DNA of 64,000 nt from Sedimentisphaerales bacterium (GCA_963708075.1 OY970194.1:3648001-3712000), one strand, 5' to 3'. Positions 3,234-60,620 are shown, numbered from the stretch's first letter. Program-made: numbers and translations. Notes: generated from the sequence alone by a model not told the origin.

Positions 3234-4052
3234 CTACCAGTCTTTGTCCACCTGCTGATATTGTGCCCTTTGTAGAATCTCGCGATCCCTCTTCTGCCGC
3301 TGTTCCCGATCCAGGATTTCCTGAGCCGTCGCATCCGGGGCCATGCGCTGTTCCTGCTGTTGCTTTTGCTCCTGCGCCTGTTGCTGGTCGGGCTGCTGCT
3401 GATCCTTTGCCTGATTGGGGTCCTTCGGCTGAGCTTCTTTTTGCTGCGCCTGATTTGGATCTTGCGGCTGGTTGGGATCGTTCTGAGACTGCTGCTGTTG
3501 CTGCTTCTGTTGGTCCTGCTGGTTCTGCTGTTGCTTCTGTTGCTCCTGCTGCTTCTTGAGCTGATCCATGATGTCCTTGATGGTCAGCCGGGCCACTTCG
3601 ATGTTTCTCGCCGCCTTTTCGTTCTTCGGGTCGATATCGAGCACCTGCCGCCAATGCGTGATGCTCGTCTTCATGTCATCGACGGCCTTCTGCAGGTCGG
3701 AGTCCCGCTGCTTGGAGCCTCGCTGGAAGAAGCAGTTGCCGAGGTTGTACTTGGCCCTGGCGACCAGCGACATATCCTTGCTGCCCGCCGCCACTTCCTG
3801 GTACAGGTCCATCGCCTCGCCAAGATCGTCCATACGATAGTAGCCGTTGCCCTTGTTGAACTTCGGCTCCAGGGCCTGCGGCTGCTCGACCAGGACCTCG
3901 TTGTACTTGTTGATGGCCTCCGTGTACTTCGAGTCTCCGAAAAGCCGGTTGCCCTGCTGCAACGCCTCCCGCGCAGAGTCCGCCCGCGCCGTCTGGATCG
4001 ACGTCGAAATCAGCACAACCAGGATGCAGCTATGCCACGCGTTTGCGTTCAC
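3234..4052 (-). CDS. batC: BatC-like TPR protein with Gln-rich tail
   Basis: Signal peptide, TPRs (FNKGNGYY, YNLGNCFF, ARNIEVAR), Q-rich linker and terminal KDW typical of BatC. Confidence 0.8.
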   Translation of the reverse strand: MNANAWHSCILVVLISTSIQTARADSAREALQQGNRLFGDSKYTEAINKYNEVLVEQPQALEPKFNKGNGYYRMDDLGEAMDLYQEVAAGSKDMSLVARAKYNLGNCFFQRGSKQRDSDLQKAVDDMKTSITHWRQVLDIDPKNEKAARNIEVARLTIKDIMDQLKKQQEQQKQQQNQQDQQKQQQQQSQNDPNQPQDPNQAQQKEAQPKDPNQAKDQQQPDQQQAQEQKQQQEQRMAPDATAQEILDREQRQKRDREILQRAQYQQVDKDW

Positions 4053-26573: not shown

Positions 26574-28715
26574 TCAGCGAGTTCGCTCCTTTTTCGACTT
26601 GCCCGGCTGACGGCCGGCTGCCGTTTGTCCGCTCAATTCATCGACGAGGCGGTCGGCTCGATAGACCTTTCGCAGGGCTTCGAGGATCGACGCCGAATGG
26701 ACCGACACGGCCCGGGCCTCCTTCTCCGTATAGGTGAAATCGAGGACCAGCGACTGGATGTTGCCGTCGAAGATGATCCCGACGAACTCTCCCTTGCGAT
26801 TGACGACGGGGCTGCCGGAGTTGCCGCCGATGATGTCCGCCGTCGAGACGAAGTTGAAAGGCGTCTTGAGGTTGAGCTTGCTCTTCTGCTTGAGCCAGAG
26901 CTCGGGCAGCTCGAATGGCGGCTGGTTACCCTGCTCCTGGGCACGCTCGTAAAGGCCGGCAAAAGTCGTCCACGGCGGAATCTGCTTACCCTGCTCCGTG
27001 TAGCCCTTGACCTCCCCGAAGGCCAGCCGCAGCGTGAACGTGGCATCGGGATAGATGTCCGTTCCATAAATGGCGAATCTCGCGTTCGCCAGCTTCGCGT
27101 AAGCCTGGCGCATCGGCTCTTCAACCTGCTCCTCATACGTCTTTCGCAAGTCCCTTGCCGGCTCATTCACGAGCAGGGCCAGTTGGATCATGGGGTCTTT
27201 CGACTGGCGAATCCCTTCCGGTTTCTGCGCCGCCAGCTCCTTGCGGAATGCGACATCCTTGAGCTTCGTGCCATTGATGAGCTCTGCCGCCCGATCCCGC
27301 GGCGACTTGCCTCCGAGCACGTCCTTGACCAGCGGATCGCCCGGCCCTTTCATCTCCACGAATCTCATCAACGAATCGGCCAACAGGATCGTTTCCAAGT
27401 CCTCGTAGATCGGGGCCTCCGAGAACAGCTCGAACTTGAGCGACTCAAGATTCGATTCGCGGTACTCACGCAGCCGCTCGGGATTCGGCTTGGCCGACTC
27501 GTCGGCCAATCGCACCAACGTCCGGGCAATGCCAAAAAGACGGGTGCTGAAGGCGGACCCCTGTTCCAGCAGGTCCCAGTCATAGTAGATCCCGTCCCAG
27601 GTTTTCAGAGCGGCGGCCACATCGGCCCACGGATCGCCGACGGGCTCCTTAAGCTGCGAGCCCTTCTCCTGGATGGCCCCGCGGAGTTTCTCCTCTTCCG
27701 CGCGTTTGCGATCCATGATGGCAGGGTCCTGGAGTCCGGCGAGCATGCCGAGCCGGGCCTTGCGGCTGTTCTGGACGCCGAACAGGTCGTCCTGTGCGCG
27801 GCGGGCGTTCTCCCGGCTCTCGGCACTGTAGGCGGACAACATGACCTCCGCGCGGAACAGCCTTTGCAGCCGGTATGGGAAAACCTTGTCGCGGAGGAAC
27901 TCGATGTGCGCCATGGTGTCGAGCCGGTCGGTCCGACCGGGATGGCCCGAGACGAATACCAGCTCGCCATCGCCCGCGCCCTTCGGGCTCCACTTCAGGT
28001 AGTGCTCGATCCTGGCGGGCTTGCCATCCTCGTACACGCGGAACAGGCAGATATCAAGGTCGTAGCGGGGATACTCGAAGTTGTCCGGATCGCCGCCGAA
28101 GAAAGCGATGTCCTTTTCGGGCGCGAAGACCAGTCGAACGTCGGTGTACTTCTTGAACCGGTAAAGGTGGTACATGCCGCCGTGATAAAGCGTCACGACA
28201 TCGCTCCGCAGCCCTGTCTTATCGAGCGATTCCTTCTCGACGGTGTTCATCGCCGCCCGGCGGGCCTGGTTGGCCTCGGCCGGGGTCATCTCCGGCTTGA
28301 CCGCTGCGTTGATCCGCTCGGTCACGTCCTCGATGTTCTGCAGCACGTTCAGCTCCAGGTCCACGCACCGGACCTCCTCCTGCAAGGTCTTGGCGTAGAA
28401 GCCCAGGGCGATCAAGTCTTTTTCTTTGGTGCTCAGCTTCTGCAGACAGTCGGCGCCGACGTGGTGATTCGTCAGCACCAGCCCATCGGCGGAGACGAAC
28501 GAACCCGACCCGCCGCTATTGAAGCGAACGCTGGACCGCTGCAAGTGGGTATACCACTCCTGCCCCGGGGCGAAATTGTACTTCTCCTTGAGCAGCTTTT
28601 CCGGCGGATTGTTGAACAGCCACATCCCTTCATCCGCCGGCGCCTCGGTCGGGATCAGGCAGATCATCACAGTCATCGGGAGAATCGGACACATCCATCT
28701 GGTCAGGTGATTCAT
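26574..28715 (-). CDS. S46 family dipeptidyl peptidase (DPP7-like)
   Basis: DEGMW, TNHH, FGGDPDNF, YPDATFTLR, GGNSGSP, FDGN; strong AGGAGG RBS. Confidence 0.93.
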   Translation of the reverse strand: MNHLTRWMCPILPMTVMICLIPTEAPADEGMWLFNNPPEKLLKEKYNFAPGQEWYTHLQRSSVRFNSGGSGSFVSADGLVLTNHHVGADCLQKLSTKEKDLIALGFYAKTLQEEVRCVDLELNVLQNIEDVTERINAAVKPEMTPAEANQARRAAMNTVEKESLDKTGLRSDVVTLYHGGMYHLYRFKKYTDVRLVFAPEKDIAFFGGDPDNFEYPRYDLDICLFRVYEDGKPARIEHYLKWSPKGAGDGELVFVSGHPGRTDRLDTMAHIEFLRDKVFPYRLQRLFRAEVMLSAYSAESRENARRAQDDLFGVQNSRKARLGMLAGLQDPAIMDRKRAEEEKLRGAIQEKGSQLKEPVGDPWADVAAALKTWDGIYYDWDLLEQGSAFSTRLFGIARTLVRLADESAKPNPERLREYRESNLESLKFELFSEAPIYEDLETILLADSLMRFVEMKGPGDPLVKDVLGGKSPRDRAAELINGTKLKDVAFRKELAAQKPEGIRQSKDPMIQLALLVNEPARDLRKTYEEQVEEPMRQAYAKLANARFAIYGTDIYPDATFTLRLAFGEVKGYTEQGKQIPPWTTFAGLYERAQEQGNQPPFELPELWLKQKSKLNLKTPFNFVSTADIIGGNSGSPVVNRKGEFVGIIFDGNIQSLVLDFTYTEKEARAVSVHSASILEALRKVYRADRLVDELSGQTAAGRQPGKSKKERTR

Positions 28716-28843
28716 GGTGATTCCTCCTTAACTCACTCAATTGTCAAAGGGGCCTGCGTACCCCCCTATTCCACCCACATTATCATAATCAGCCACCCCA
28801 GTCCACTTTCTCCACGGAAACTCGCCTTCATCCAGCCCCCTGA

Positions 28844-29490
28844 AATTGGCTTTGTTTCGCACGACAGGTTCTTGGCCGTCTTGCAGGGCGGGCCATACCT
28901 ACCATCTGTCCGGCAGAGCAAATTGGCTTTGTTTCGCACAGTCGCGTCCCCACTCACCCGAGGTCGCCTGTCCCGTCCTCGGAATTGGCTTTGTTTCGCA
29001 GACCAGTCCAGCATGTGGAATTGGCTTTGTTTTGCGCGCCCGCCCATGTCCGCCACTGCCGGCATTCGCCCCTATTCCGCATTCCGCACTCCGCATTCTC
29101 AGGTTCCTGGCCCCGAATTGGCTTTGTTTCACAAGATCACCCATGCGGTTCACTCCTACCCGCTGCCCGCTGCCTGTCCCCGCCTTAGCAATTGGCTTTG
29201 TTTGGCGCGACCGGGCCACCCAGGAATTGGGTTTGTTTTGAATACTGCGCGTCGGCTTCCTGCAACCCAGCATTTCCCACTCCCGAACCAGGGTTTCCAT
29301 AAATTGGCTTTGTTTCGCAAGGTAGGGCGAGCGTCCCCGCTCGCCCCCGATTGCCGTCCAGGCCCGACCCCGAAATTGGCTTTGTTTCGCACGCCTGCCC
29401 ATGTTGGTGTTGCCGATATCCGCCTTTCATTCCGCACTCCGCATTCCGCATTCCCACGGCCCCCCGGCCCGTAATTGGCTTTGTTTCGCC
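28844..29490. repeat. Array of ten short direct repeats AATTGGCTTTGTTT(CGCA) with variable spacers; CRISPR-like layout, no cas genes
   Basis: Copies start at 28844, 28921, 28983, 29019, 29116, 29190, 29225, 29302, 29374 and 29473; periods 77, 62, 36, 97, 74, 35, 77, 72, 99 bp. Confidence 0.92.
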
Positions 29491-29769
29491 TAACTTGGCG
29501 CCCACCGGCGGCGGCTTGTGCTCCAGTGGTCACGGAAAGCCCTCCGGGGATTCATGGCTTGTTGATGTTTGATTTTTGATTTGAGCAGGGCCTGGCGGGG
29601 CGCACCGACACCCGATGAAATTTGGTCATCAGACCATATACTAGAGACGCTCCGAGAAGCAAATTGTTGCAGGAATTTATGTTAGATAGTAAAATACCCC
29701 TAAGTCCTCATGGCCCGGAGACTTAAATCGCAATATTCTTGCGCATAAGTGGAAGGCAGGCGTAAGTTC

Positions 29770-29792
29770 GTAGGATGGGCTTTAGCCCATGC
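29770..29792 (+). repeat. REP-like palindrome GTAGGATGGGCTTTAGCCCATGC
   Basis: GTAG tetranucleotide followed by an ATGGGCT/AGCCCAT hairpin. Confidence 0.65.
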
Positions 29793-29934
29793 GGACGGGT
29801 CTGGAATTGCCAAGCCAGGAACTGCATGCGCCCTTCTTCTTCCTGTGACCGCTTCCTTTGCATTCCTGTCGGCCCGCCTATAGAATACGGGCAACGCCGC
29901 GGCCTGTGGTGCTCTTGAGGACAGAGTACGACCT

Positions 29935-30372
29935 ATGGATATGATTGAGCAGATCAATTCGTGTGACTGGTTCTACTTGGCCCAGATTGGTGAACCGAAG
30001 GATAACATGCTGCGTCTTGTCATTGAAGAGGCAGTGCTCGGTACGCCAGAGGATATCAACCTGGGCGGCCTTCCCCTTCCGCAGGCGCAGCGTATCATCT
30101 CAACCGACCAGTGCCTTGCCTATGAAATCATCTTCCGCACGTATATAGCTTATGTAGTCTGCAATGAGTCGTTCGCGAAGTCAGACCCTGGGGATGTCTT
30201 CACGGGGCGACATTTTCGCATGTACAGGAAATCCCAATTTCTCAGCTACGTTCGGGAGACGACTCTTGCCTGCGATCTGCATCCTGGACCCTATAAGCAC
30301 TTTGAAATCATCTGCCTGAATCACGTCGTGGACGTGGCGTCCGTTGATGAGCCCTCCATCAGAATCCTGTAG
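29935..30372 (+). CDS. Hypothetical protein (lower GC)
   Basis: 145-aa ATG ORF with globular composition; no recognisable family. Confidence 0.65.
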   Translation: MDMIEQINSCDWFYLAQIGEPKDNMLRLVIEEAVLGTPEDINLGGLPLPQAQRIISTDQCLAYEIIFRTYIAYVVCNESFAKSDPGDVFTGRHFRMYRKSQFLSYVRETTLACDLHPGPYKHFEIICLNHVVDVASVDEPSIRIL

Positions 30373-30379
30373 GCAGGAC

Positions 30380-30401
30380 GGTGGGGCAAGCCCCACCCTA
30401 C
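30380..30401 (-). repeat. REP-like palindrome GTAGGGTGGGGCTTGCCCCACC
   Basis: Same core as 9525-9546. Confidence 0.75.
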
Positions 30402-30440
30402 GGACATGCTGTCGCAATGAGATCAGACCTCGCAGGCGTG

Positions 30441-33400
30441 CTATGGCAGTGTGGCGACGCGGGGCCAGGCGTCTTCCCAGACCATGGTCGAGATCTTCAG
30501 TTCGGGGCGGCCGGTTTGGCCGTGGTAGGCGTGAAAGACCAGGTAGTCGCCGGTCTTGTCCTGGAGGACGGCTTCGTGGCCGGGACCGCGCCAGTTCGGC
30601 GTTGTCGCTTCGATGACCATCGTGCCGCCGCCTTCTAGCATGGGGACGCCGGCTTTATCCACGTAAGGACCTGTGACATCTTTCGAGCGGCCTACGCGGA
30701 TGTTGTACGTGCTTTTTGCGCCCCGGCAGCAGAAGTCGAAGGAGGCGAACAGGTACCACCAACCGTCGTGGCGGACGATGAACGGGGCTTCGATAGCCCC
30801 TGACTGCGGCGGCGTCTCATGCGGGCCGGTGCGCGGACGCCTCGCCAGGTTGTGCAGCGTCGTGTCGGTGGTCGAGCACTTGCCGGTCTGCGGGTCGATC
30901 CGGCGCATCATGATCCCGCCCCAGAAGCTGCCCCAGCACAGCCACGCGTTCTGCTCATCCTGGATCACCAGATTGCCGTCGATGGCGTTCCAGTCGTCCT
31001 TGCCTTCGGTTGACCGGACGACGAGGCCCTGATCGACCCATTTGTAGTCGGGGCTGTTTGGATCGAGAGTGCCGTTTGTGGCCAGGCCGATGGCCGAGTT
31101 GTTTTTGCCAAACGTGGAGACGGAATAATAGAGATGGTATTTGCCGTTGAAGTAAGAGATATCAGGCGCCCAGGCACCGCGAGTCCCCGGGATTTCCTTC
31201 GGGGCCCATTCCGGCAGCGCACTGAAGACACTGCCGGACCTTGTCCAGTGGCGCATGTCTTTGGATTGCTTAATCGGAACAATCCCCGATCCTCGGCCGG
31301 CGCTCGTGCAGAAGACGTAGAACGTGTCCCCCTGCCGGATGATGACTGGGTCGTGCGCGCCCAGATCGCCCGAAAGCTCAAGCATCTGTGGCGCTCCCGT
31401 GGCCGAAGATGCCGCCCCCTCAGACTGGCCAGATGCGTCCCGACTTGCTGAGTTTTGGGTGGCAGCGTCAAGCGCAGCTTGGCGATGGTCTGCCCGTTCG
31501 CCATCGCCAAGGCCTTCGGCCTTGACGCTGCCACCCATCGCGGCCGGAGTTGCGAGAACCTCCAGCCCGCCTTTGAGCCGGATATCCTCCGACGAGCTGC
31601 CCACCATCACCTCAAACGCACCGGGCTCCACGATGAATCCATGCGTCTTCGTGTCGTAGAAGGAGAGCTTCTCCACCGGCAGTTCCAGCGTCACAGTTTT
31701 CTTCTGGCCCGGCTGAAGGCTGATCCGCTGGAATCCTCGCAGCTCTTTCGCAGGCCGCTTCACGCTGCACTCCAAATCGCGTACATAGAGCTGCACGACC
31801 TCATCGCCCGCGCGCTTGCCGGTGTTCGCCACGTCCGCCATCACCGTGACTTTGCCGTTGGGCGGGACCTGCTTCGGGGAAATCTGAAGGTTGGAGTACG
31901 CAAAGTCTGTGTAGCTCAGGCCGTGGCCGAAGGCGAAAAGCGGCGAGCCGTTGAGGTACATGTACGTGAAGCCTTTGGTGATATCGTACTCATCCTGTGG
32001 CGGAACCTGGCTTTCGGAGGCATAGAAGGTGTAGGGCAGCTTGCCGCCCGGATTCGCGTTGCCGAAGAGGACGTCGGCCATGGCGTTGCCGCCCTCCTCG
32101 CCGGCCCACCAGGCTTCGAGAATCGCCGGCACGTGCTCCTTGATCCAGGGAATCGCCAGCGGACCGGCGTTGAGCAAAACGACCGCCGCACGGGGATTTG
32201 CCGCGAGCACCGTCTTTACCAACTCCTCCTGATTGCCGGGCAGGCTCAGGCTGTCACGGTCGCGCCCCTCCGCCTCCACATTGAGCGTAGTGCCGACGTA
32301 GACGATAGCCACATCGGCCTTCTTCGCGATTTCTGCGGCCTTGCGCAATTCCTCCTCTTTGTTGAAGGGTGTTTGCGGCGTCCTTCTCGGCGGCGAAATC
32401 TGCGCGCCCTTGGCAAAGAAAACTTCCGTTCCTGGAGCGGCCCGATTCTTGATGCCCTGGAGCGGCGTCACGGGGTCTTTGACCTTGCCGCTGTAGCCGC
32501 CGGCGGTGAAGATGTCCGCGTGCGGGCCAATCACGGCGATGCTCCTGAGTTTGCTCCTATCGAGGGGCAGGAAGTGATCTTTGTTGCTCAGTAGCACGAT
32601 GGACTTGTGCGCGGTCCTGAGCGCCAGCCGCCTGTGCTCGGGACTGCAAATCACGCTGGGCGAAATCCTGCTATAGGGCACCATCGCCGGCGGGTCGAAC
32701 TCGCCCAGGCGAAACCGGGCCCGCAGGACTCGCAAGAGCGCGTCATCCAACCTCGATTCCGGCAGCAGGCCCTTGCGGACGGCGACAGGAATGTACTCCA
32801 TGAATTCCTTGTCGGAGAAGTCGCAGCCCGCGATCAGCGATTGCGCGACGGCGTCTTCGAAGGTCATCTTGCCGCCGGCGTGCCCTTTGACCATCGTGTC
32901 CACGCCGCCGAGGTCGGAGACGACGAATCCGCCGAAGCCCCACTGCTCCTTGAGGATGTCGGTCAGCAGCGGCTTGTTGATATTGTTCGGGACGCCGTTG
33001 ATGGCGTTGTAGGAAGCCATGATCGACTGGGCCTGGCCCTCGACGATGCAGTCGCGAAAGTGCGGCAACCAGTACTCGTGCAGCATCCGCTCGCTCACTG
33101 TGGCCGAGAGCTTCTGGCGATCTTCCTCGACGTTGTTGACGGCGTAGTGCTTGAGCGTGGAGACCAGCTTGAGGTACCTGGGATCGTCGCCCTGCAGGCC
33201 CTTGACGAAGGCGACGCCGATACGGCCGGTGAGGAACGGGTCCTCACCGTAACACTCGTTGATCCGGCCCCAGTATGGATTTCGGCTGATGTTGATCACC
33301 GGGGCGCGGTAGATCAGGCCCTTCTTCTCCCCCTGGAAATTCGGGTCCTGGTGCCAGCCGTTGTAGATCGCCCGGGCCTCGTCGGAGATCGTCGTGGCGA

Positions 33401-60053: not shown

Positions 60054-60620
60054 ATGTTGAGCGGGGAGAGATACACAAAACGATGCGAGCGATGGAATAG
60101 AGCGGGTCATGCGCATGAGTTGACATTCAGTTGCCATCAAGGCCATCCGTTTCTCGCCAAAGAGCGGACGTGCCTCTGGTTGGTCGATTCGATCAATAAC
60201 GCCCGGCGCAGGCACGACTTTGATCTCTGGGCGTACGTCTCCATGCCAAACCATGTGCATCTGATTGTCTGTCCAAGAAGAGAACACTATTCCATATCGA
60301 GTATCCTACAATCCATCAAGCAGCCGGCGGCACGCAGGGCGATACAGTACTTGAAGACCGGCAATCCTGAGGGTCTGCGCCTTCTGGCTATGGGCCAGCA
60401 GATTCGCCCCTATGAGTTCTGGCAGAAAGGCGGTGGGTACGACCGGAACATCGTGAACGTCGAGACCCTCATTGAAGTGGTGCGCTACATCCACAATAAC
60501 CCGGTGCGAAAAGGCCTTGTCGAGACGCCTGACCAGTGGCACTACTCCATCGCATCTGAGTGGGACAACAACCGGGCCGGCCCGATCCTCATTGATCGCG
60601 ACACCTTTCCGGCGCACTGA
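60054..60620 (+). mobile_element. rayT: REP-associated tyrosine transposase (RAYT, HUH Y1 family)
   Basis: LTFSC, MPNHVHLI (HUH), FWQ.G.YDRNI, YIHNNPV..GLV..W.YS; flanked on both sides by REPs. Confidence 0.9.

Follow-up and report, generated by a model that had tools for sequence, protein, structure and literature searches.

The array of short repeats at positions 28844–29490 of the window (the whole 64 000-nt stretch of DNA analysed here) belongs to an element present in many copies, and makes up the repeat tail of one of these. In this genome, a single contig of 7.5 Mb with 60% GC, the full element is ∼1.5 kb in length and is built from a leader, a ribosome binding site, a gene that we term X, one to many cores of 14–18 nt, and a trailer of ∼150 nt. 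The copy in the window is an X-less derivative, in which the leader, the Shine–Dalgarno (SD) sequence and ∼10 codons of X are joined directly to 10 cores.

The core reads as AATTGGCTTTGTTT(CGCA) on the plus strand and as TGCGAAACAAAGCCAATT on the minus strand, which is the gene-sense strand. A search of the window for AATTGGCTTTGTTT allowing ≤2 mismatches gave 10 matches, all on the plus strand, starting at 28844, 28921, 28983, 29019, 29116, 29190, 29225, 29302, 29374 and 29473. Nine of the ten are exact, and the copy at 29225 has a single mismatch (AATTGGGTTTGTTT). The mean number of matches expected from dinucleotide shuffles was 0.10, and none of 100 shuffles reached 10. The start-to-start spacings are 77, 62, 36, 97, 74, 35, 77, 72 and 99 nt, giving spacers of 17–81 nt when counted behind an 18-nt repeat. 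The final 4 nt of the repeat are variable, with CGCA in 6 copies and TGCG, CACA, GGCG, TGAA and CGCC also represented. The core is without self-complementarity; the 10 copies gave no inverted-repeat family.

The array fills most of a 1.2-kb intergenic gap. On one side lies an S46 peptidase gene (26574–28715, minus strand; PF10459, E 2.7e-214), a neighbour outside the element that has an SD and ATG of its own. Upstream of this gene, the array stops 129 nt away and has the same reading direction. On the other side the next gene is a 145-aa ORF (29935–30372, plus strand). An earlier note on this DNA had described ten co-oriented repeats with one mismatch in the seventh, spacers of 17–81 nt and an intergenic location, and the measured counts and spacings bear this out. 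The same note took the array to be non-coding and to act at the level of DNA or RNA. Its non-coding character too is upheld, the core falling into each of the three frames among the ORFs crossing the window array. A coding reading is rejected on these grounds, and also from comparison of arrays elsewhere in the genome that are built of 87-nt units, where the strand of the ORFs with respect to the core is not constant (arrays 6 and 17).

The spacers contain recognizable modules. Spacer 8 holds a REP-like module at 29322–29346, comprising a GTAG tag and a 9-bp GC hairpin with its stem at 29325–29333 and 29338–29346 and a TCCC loop (fold z = −4.4, unit a28_u7). Similar GTAG-plus-hairpin modules are found in other arrays and elsewhere in the genome. 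A run of ATTCCGC-type heptamers (family D4) lies within spacer 4 at 29074–29101, and a second heptamer run within spacer 9 at 29429–29456. Contigs from one short-read run match 28616–28944 and 29287–29447 exactly, and one contig of another run, X3, has an additional 7-nt heptamer unit at 29082. None of the short-read contigs spans the full array; they are short, and cross-match other arrays.

The window array is not a lone locus. The genome contains 263 copies of the core (≤1 mismatch) in 48 places, where a reversed control pattern gave 1, and 37 of these places hold 3–13 copies. In all 48 the cores are confined to one strand. The logo of the repeat has its informative part in 14 nt followed by a weaker CGCA, and the surrounding strand is C-rich. 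Start-to-start spacings range from 32 to 375 nt across the genome, with recurring unit lengths of 87 nt (25 times) and of 34, 53–56 and 63 nt, and the units contain no ORFs. They fall into sequence families, with the same families shared by several arrays. The fillers include GTAG-tagged GC hairpins of REP type, runs of heptamers and octamers, and an 87-nt hairpin unit. Most copies of the fillers are located away from cores, including all but 14 of 114 copies of the 87-nt hairpin and ∼80% of the ∼95 heptamer runs in the genome, and a filler that is near a core has a fixed orientation. Enrichment of hairpins in the spacers is weak overall (mean z −0.41, with 10% of 180 spacers below −2). The genome is also crowded with other repeat families.

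A crude codon-usage gene caller placed 27 of the 37 arrays upstream of where the adjacent gene starts, on the gene-sense strand of TGCGAAACAAAGCCAATT. The 74 ORFs flanking the arrays are mostly unrelated housekeeping genes by Pfam, and the idea of a regulon was rejected for this reason. A bias with respect to the replication strand was likewise rejected, as the orientation of the arrays does not switch along the chromosome.

The earlier note had suggested spacer acquisition among other functions, and had proposed a search of the spacers against phages and plasmids. A blastn search with the array gave no match in 50 697 phage and 72 556 plasmid records. Cas1 (PF01867), the cas family that was searched, has no match in the single-contig genome (marker completeness 92.8%); the same profile detected Cas1 in 7 of 14 genomes as a positive control. 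There is no Rfam match at E ≤ 1 over 27500–31000. Taken with the recurrence of the fillers, which are repeat families mostly found outside arrays as well, these results rule out a CRISPR-like reading and acquisition of spacers. The note had itself set the array apart from CRISPR, and the 18-nt repeat, the irregular spacers and the lack of a Cas1 match agree with that. A processed non-coding RNA array, another of its suggestions, finds no support from Rfam or from consensus folding, whereas a set of protein-binding sites and a recombination locus, which it had also suggested, are both kept as candidates.

Twenty-one of the 37 arrays have one of two conserved leader types, always reading into the array (11 of type 1 and 10 of type 2), and the other 16 have neither. 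The type-1 signature GAGCGTCTCTAGTATATGGTC occurs 11 times in the genome (≤3 mismatches), in every case 125–1595 nt upstream of an array and directed towards it. The 11 type-1 leaders have ∼110 nt of conserved upstream sequence, then GGAGG followed by ATG or GTG, and all 11 when aligned retain TGnAAC-N16/17-CGTC, a pattern that we take to be an ECF-sigma type of promoter. The type-2 signature lies beside an array in 5 of its 6 genome occurrences; the 10 aligned type-2 leaders have a sigma-70-type promoter-like motif, TTGACA-N17-TATGAT, together with the same SD-plus-start segment as type 1. This type-2 promoter form, with 11 of 12 consensus matches, is also found ahead of an X homologue in a genome of 44% GC.

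The leader in the window (∼29534–29750, minus strand) is of type 1, and corresponds to the AT-rich stretch that the earlier note had thought might be a leader or promoter; the GC content between 29600 and 29780 is 0.43–0.46. Starting at its distal end, where the boundary is approximate, the leader begins with the upstream part at 29653–29750 (..GTAAGTC.C.GGGCCACAAGGGCTT..TTCACTATCTAACAGAAATTC..). Then comes the ECF-sigma-type promoter-like motif at 29646–29671, reading into the array, with TGCAAC at 29671–29666 and CGTC at 29649–29646 separated by 16 nt. This overlaps the signature GAGCGTCTCTAGTATATGGTC at 29632–29652, and is followed by a hairpin TGGTC-TGAT-GACCA at 29623–29636. Most of the 11 leaders retain this 5-bp hairpin, one copy (C1:5762098) with a compensatory pair TGGGC/GCCCA. 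A run of AT-rich AAATCAA-type heptamers occupies 29558–29584; nine of the 11 type-1 leaders have this run, and in the other two (C1:482174 and C1:3463255) it is degenerate or missing. The SD-like GGAGG at 29541–29545 is conserved in both leader types and lies 7 nt before a GTG start codon at 29533–29531. This opens the remnant of X (29491–29533), with ∼10 X-homologous codons and then ∼20 nt leading into the first core. A sigma-70 scan of the window, in which promoters of ECF type are out of scope, gave three sites on the plus strand and none on the minus strand. Transcription from the leader promoter probably continues across the array in the direction of the adjacent S46 gene.

The junction between leader, X remnant and core is common to at least five arrays (a11, a16, a21, a25 and a28, the last being that of the window), and an X-bearing copy parts from the X-less ones after ...GTCGCCGCC. 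In the X-less arrays the ORF is reduced to its N-terminal codons. As the same X-less junction recurs in several places, the window copy is taken to be an internally deleted derivative of the element.

Two of the type-1 leaders have a start codon from which a real ORF extends, and X is defined by the first ∼175 residues of this ORF. This is a gene consistently linked to the arrays, for which the earlier note had proposed a search. Searching the genome for X gave 10 matches, which represent 9 loci, and behind X at every one of the nine an array with the same direction begins within ∼50–220 nt (arrays 6, 14, 15, 17, 18, 22, 24, 32 and 41). The sequence shared between copies extends from ∼220 nt before the start codon of X to ∼145 nt after the last core. 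At all 9 loci the ORF continues into the array without a stop codon, so that a protein tail encoded by the repeats is conceivable where the units are multiples of 3, as with those of 87 nt. The trailer ends in a tRNA T-arm-like sequence at six loci, with no tRNA detected by ARAGORN in the trailers of 7 loci, and its fold has 3 covarying pairs only, among 4 close copies. In a comparison of occupied sites, neither terminal inverted repeats (TIR) nor target-site duplications (TSD) were found at the element boundaries inspected. Mobility is therefore argued only from the copy number, the shared junctions and the absence of the array from orthologous loci described below.

X resembles no named family in the collections searched. 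Nothing was found in Pfam, NCBIfam or PHROGs at E < 0.2, and no family in PADLOC, where a Cas1 match (E 0.005, for one of four homologues) was dismissed as noise. An HMM search of PDB sequences gave MazF at E 0.26 as the sole match, and the ESM Atlas returned unnamed clusters only. The AlphaFold model is all-helical (pLDDT 71.2, pTM 0.61). The N-terminal 40 residues are basic and highly conserved, and are modelled at pLDDT 51–57. Foldseek found no match to the fold at E ≤ 0.001, and VIA gave generic helical hairpins (best Z 7.8). Judged from a model of moderate quality, X would appear to have no recognizable DNA-binding, nuclease or recombinase fold.

The family has a great many members. The X profile matches 39 021 clusters (50% identity) at E ≤ 0.001 and 23 140 at E ≤ 1e-10; since the profile took in some columns of the tail, the 1772 clusters at E ≤ 1e-30 provide a safer floor. 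There are 620 homologues of near-equal length and 133 longer ones, all 'hypothetical' or unnamed, and no domain fusions are present among the 133. In the tails of the homologues the core is translated in different frames. Many homologues are on contigs of 1–3 kb, so the arrays probably break short-read assemblies. A full-text literature search for the core string and motifs of X found no paper.

Could the core be a recombination site for an enzyme encoded elsewhere, with X as a passenger or accessory? As in integrons or NIME arrays, the core would then be the crossover point of a site-specific recombinase or a single-strand transposase, and the units would be tiny shuffled cassettes. The sharing of unit families between arrays is consistent with this, as are the strict co-orientation of the cores within arrays and the bases immediately 3′ of the 14-mer, which go with whichever body follows. 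The T-arm-like end of the trailer is presumably a kind of sequence that integrases use. There is also a potential enzyme, the Y1 (IS200/RAYT-type) transposase, with 13 PF01797 matches in the genome. Pfam analysis of the flanking ORFs revealed a second, truncated Y1 copy beside an array, and the two truncated genes (92% identical) are placed in the same configuration beside arrays a3 and a16. However, a core lies within 2.5 kb of only one of the 13 Y1 loci, and a RAYT link of the cores was rejected on the basis of this single association. Moreover, no recombinase recurs among the 74 ORFs beside the arrays, and neither a recombinase nor any other recurrent neighbour was found among 53 ORFs beside X in other phyla. 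The unit bodies occur mostly outside arrays without cores, as exemplified by the 87-nt hairpin, and the core lacks the palindromic character of attC or dRS3 sites. An enzyme acting from elsewhere is thus improbable in our assessment. A site that belongs to X itself is the reading that we prefer.

The association of X with the core extends far beyond this genome. Of 23 other genomes in the genus, 21 contain X, with 1–21 copies each. At 24 of 28 loci in these genomes a gene-sense core lies 100–550 nt downstream of X, and the other 4 have ≤409 nt of downstream DNA. At some loci a long hairpin of octamer repeats has a forward core before it and a reverse core after it. Scanning species-representative genomes with a profile provided 80 X loci with GC contents of 41–73%, drawn from Planctomycetota, Acidobacteriota, Alphaproteobacteria, Actinomycetota, Ignavibacteriales and others. 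A 12-nt core (≤1 mismatch) was found at 71 of the 80 loci, in a stretch running from approximately residue 100 of X to +900 nt, compared with 4 of 80 upstream control stretches. The exact 18-mer is present in acidobacterial MAGs directly behind X homologues that are 36–43% identical, in the opposite orientation. Rfam scans of X loci gave unrelated matches only.

X diverges to 31–43% identity while the core paired with it is kept. The core remains identical as X diverges and GC content shifts by 30 points, which indicates constraint at the nucleotide level. Its orientation relative to X varies by lineage, with inverted pairs at some loci, and we infer that this favours recognition of DNA over RNA. 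From these sequence comparisons, the pairing of X and core is ancient, and has been kept at the nucleotide level across phyla.

The commonest form across phyla has two cores ∼90 nt apart. An alignment of 50 of these '92-nt modules' (GC 41–65%) is invariant only at the two cores, an AA and a TTATG, with fixed spacing between them. RNAalifold gave 0 pairs for the consensus fold of the 50 modules on the minus (gene-sense) strand. A coding role for the module was rejected, as the ATG is followed by stops in loci L016, L025 and L030, and the TTATG could not act as a start so near to the GGAG.

The invariant positions admit another interpretation, in which the module carries a promoter on the AATTGG strand that fires back into the 3′ end of X, thereby exerting antisense-RNA control. 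A −35 box (TTGccc or TTAccc) would be separated by 17 nt from a −10 box (nAAATT) formed by the start of the core; the core would be conserved as −10 box and start of transcription, and the arrays would be amplified promoter or antisense units. X and the module would then be comparable to a type I toxin–antitoxin or another cis-antisense system. The invariant AA would be the TT of the putative −35 box, the fixed spacing is as required, and the failure to find a consensus RNA fold is what promoter-type DNA signals would give. Promoter-like sites on the AATTGG strand are present at or near cores in two AT-rich loci, and X stands alone among unrelated genes, in the source genome too, as addiction modules do. 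On the other hand, the logo of the arrays in the window genome has no −35 signal over positions −25 to −20 relative to the cores, and most cores are therefore unable to act as promoters. In addition the acidobacterial cores are reversed, and would point away from X. Furthermore X is helical and ∼175 aa in length, unlike type I toxins, which to our knowledge are small. We regard antisense control as an outside chance. Recognition of the core as DNA by X remains the reading that we favour.

The position of the array is not conserved. S46 orthologues in 21 congeneric genomes are 57–81% identical, and the core is absent within 1.5 kb on each side of all 21. The array is also absent from the S46 locus of 80 metagenomic relatives. 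One of these array-less metagenomic contigs is 93% identical over the first 309 residues of the S46 gene, and its proximal upstream ∼100 nt resembles that of the window when compared by eye. Elsewhere in the genome an IS4-type element has split one array. The absence from orthologous loci, together with the split array, indicates that the location of the window array is recent and lineage-specific. The motif as such is found in all 23 other genomes of the genus, with between 6 and 1084 copies each. Among 301 genomes sampled evenly from the phylum, an exact match to the degenerate 14-mer is present in 30, and four or more copies in only 6.

Such variability might be expected of functionless debris, where one or two cores behind X had seeded a neutral expansion of minisatellite type, and the copy in the window was a dead relic. 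The range of copy number within one genus, the unconserved position, the array broken by an IS element, the abundance of repeats in the genome and the heptamer run that varies between samples are all consistent with this. Yet 9 of the 10 cores in the window match exactly across 14 nt despite free variation of the spacers, the X-less copies keep their promoter-like boxes, hairpin and SD, and 27 of 37 arrays point to the start of the adjacent gene, as judged by the crude gene caller. Exact cores, retained leaders and array polarity are not obviously expected of decaying debris, and we consider this the least probable of the alternatives.

Our preferred explanation is therefore a leader–X–core element in which the core serves X as a cis site at the DNA level, and the arrays represent amplified relics; as a whole we hold this to be probable, though by no means secure. 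X is predicted to bind the core, and could possibly recombine or mobilize it. The arrays may arise by unequal recombination or slippage between cores, together with insertion of other repeats, and X-less copies like that in the window would persist or spread as non-autonomous relics that are possibly mobile. In a stronger form of the proposal, X and its 14–18-nt core would be a previously undescribed, self-contained protein–DNA-site system with a mechanism unrelated to the transposase, recombinase and Cas families. The basic N-terminal arm of the helical protein would recognize the asymmetric motif, and so drive amplification of arrays or mobility of cassettes. This stronger form is put forward tentatively, and we would sooner doubt it than not. 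The undescribed array system suggested by the earlier note stands in part: the non-coding and non-CRISPR character, the leader and the linked gene are retained, and spacer acquisition is not.

The pairing with the core gives a first testable handle on a very large protein family, as a candidate protein–DNA recognition pair whose motif is constant across phyla and in genomes from 41% to 70% GC. The element also explains a class of 'Cas-less repeat-spacer arrays' in the genomes of Planctomycetota. If X is a sequence-specific binder or a new mobility protein, it would join REP-RAYT, dRS3/NTS-Ssn and CRISPR-Cas as a system of a repeat and its cognate protein.

Several known systems have features in common with the element. 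The arrays resemble CRISPR in having a leader with promoter-like motifs at one end, co-oriented repeats with variable intervening sequence, and several arrays in a genome. CRISPR direct repeats are ∼23–47 nt in length with spacers of near-uniform size, whereas the core is 14–18 nt and the spacers range from 17 to several hundred nt. In contrast to CRISPR, the spacers are repeated in the genome and have no phage or plasmid match, Cas1 was not detected, and the linked gene, situated between leader and array, has no relationship to Cas proteins. Type III toxin–antitoxin systems like ToxIN have uniform tandem RNA repeats upstream of the gene for an endoribonuclease toxin, whereas here the repeats are irregular and downstream of X, which is predicted to be all-helical. 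Nor does the array behave as a structured non-coding RNA, given the lack of Rfam matches and of RNAalifold pairs. The core differs from the attC sites of integrons in not being palindromic, a comparison confined to the check for palindromic sites.

Partition loci of the F sopB–sopC type have a centromeric repeat array behind the gene for its binding protein, and a gene directly followed by tandem short sites, an order sometimes seen for a protein and the DNA sites cognate to it, is likewise found here. However, the loci described here are chromosomal, number in the tens and lack a partner of ParA type; their spacers are irregular, and their repeat is not an inverted one. Insertion sequences have non-autonomous derivatives of MITE type, and the element is similar in having gene-bearing and internally deleted copies with common ends and a shared deletion junction (5 arrays), in its many copies, and in the presence or absence of an insertion between relatives. 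It differs in that neither TIR nor TSD were detected at the boundaries inspected, no known transposase fold is recognizable in X, and one 'end' is an expandable array.

REP sequences are described as imperfect palindromes of 20–40 nt with a GTAG or CGTC tag (PMC3733652), and BIME mosaics as having repeats that alternate in orientation (PMC2817692). The likeness lies in high-copy extragenic repeats, composite mosaics, a dedicated protein gene, and a copy number that varies strongly between relatives. GTAG hairpins are also present here, as fillers only. The core is neither palindromic nor alternating, being on one strand in 48 of 48 places, and the linked gene encodes the all-helical X rather than a Y1/HUH transposase.

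The nearest described analogue, by comparison of their organization, is the neisserial NIME array. In this a short dRS3 repeat of ∼20 nt separates many families of 19–214-nt 'RS' filler; the arrays are intergenic, vary in repeat number and length, and may contain other repeats and IS elements (PMC1797815). The dRS3 repeat is there described as a 20-bp inverted repeat with 6-nt arms around 8 nt (PMC1797815). It was proposed to be the binding site of a site-specific protein, and the Ssn nuclease was later shown to recognize an extended form (PMC1797815, PMC11893778). A short conserved repeat between filler families in dynamic intergenic arrays, which typifies NIME arrays, is found here too. The core differs from the dRS3 inverted repeat as described there in being asymmetric and strictly co-oriented. 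NIME arrays keep their chromosomal position between strains, whereas the window array is absent from orthologous loci. NIMEs are not known to have a leader or an adjacent cognate gene; here a leader and X, or its remnant, precede arrays. The pairing of gene and motif also spans several phyla, in which it differs from NIMEs. We therefore see the leader–X–core system as a variant on the theme of a dispersed repeat plus cognate gene, and give the idea that its mechanism is categorically new a real but minor chance.

The X-linked arrays, in which core repeats follow the gene for the ~175-aa all-helical protein X, have a ~150-nt trailer behind them, terminating in a tRNA T-arm-like GCGG(T/C)TCGAATCCGCC and an acceptor-like stretch. 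One such trailer is located at C1:942041-942188 of G000, the genome of the window (L327:2621-2768 in the fetched locus), and others at five further X-element ends. The trailer is confined to the X-bearing copies (6 loci), and ARAGORN called no tRNA in it. It could be an att-type site or the 3′ end of an RNA.

Matches to known RNAs are found near two X elements. An nhaA-I riboswitch match (L327:848-903, corresponding to G000:C1:940268-940323, minus strand) scores 49.2 bits, above the gathering score of 37 bits, with the X element ~400 nt downstream. The Acido-Lenti-1 RNA is matched twice, once on each strand (L333:3384-3429 on the plus strand and 3534-3577 on the minus strand, within G000:C1:1878842-1879035), ~500 nt upstream of another X element; the scores of 36.4 and 38.3 bits are at or near the gathering score of 37 bits.

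The gene-sense core CGAAACAAAGCCAATTAC is similar to the DNA for the best-conserved motif in the N-terminal part of X, CGTAACGCCGCCAAATCC: the two agree at ~12 of 18 positions. The likeness was read from the alignment of X-less junctions with an X-bearing copy, and falls at X codons ~11-17. It could be due to chance, could provide a second site for X within its own gene, or could be the microhomology behind the X-less deletion.

An IS4-family (DDE_Tnp_1-like) transposase gene (G000:C1:4779102-4780283) sits within an X-linked array, whose two parts are arrays 32 and 33; the joints show inverted ends and what is probably a direct duplication. Arrays a3 and a16 are each preceded, at a distance of ~450-570 nt and in an identical configuration, by a truncated Y1 transposase ORF (C1:481667-482125 and 2287239-2287626 respectively); these two ORFs share 92% identity. 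No core occurs within 2.5 kb of their full-length paralogue (C1:6907075-6907410). The window itself contains a weak Y1_Tnp (IS200/RAYT-type) match at 60180-60350 on the plus strand (G000:C1:3708180-3708350; 26.1 bits, E = 4.2e-5), one of 13 genome-wide.

A 949-aa open frame (window 26625-29474, plus strand) runs antisense to the S46 peptidase gene and extends across the array as well. Most likely the frame is artefactual, since this strand is C-rich and has few stops.

Unrelated families of intergenic repeats are unusually abundant in this genome. A 41-47-nt repeat of >90% identity is present at >80 sites, including C1:481987-482037, and a 185-nt repeat at ~10 places. The fillers include repeated hairpins with the layout GTCATTCC-stem-loop-stem-GGAATCC, at loci L118, L126 and L388 and near C1:6490300 of G000. 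These GTCATTCC...GGAATCC hairpins closely resemble the NTS/dRS3-type motif of Neisseria, described in the paper on the nuclease Ssn (PMC11893778).
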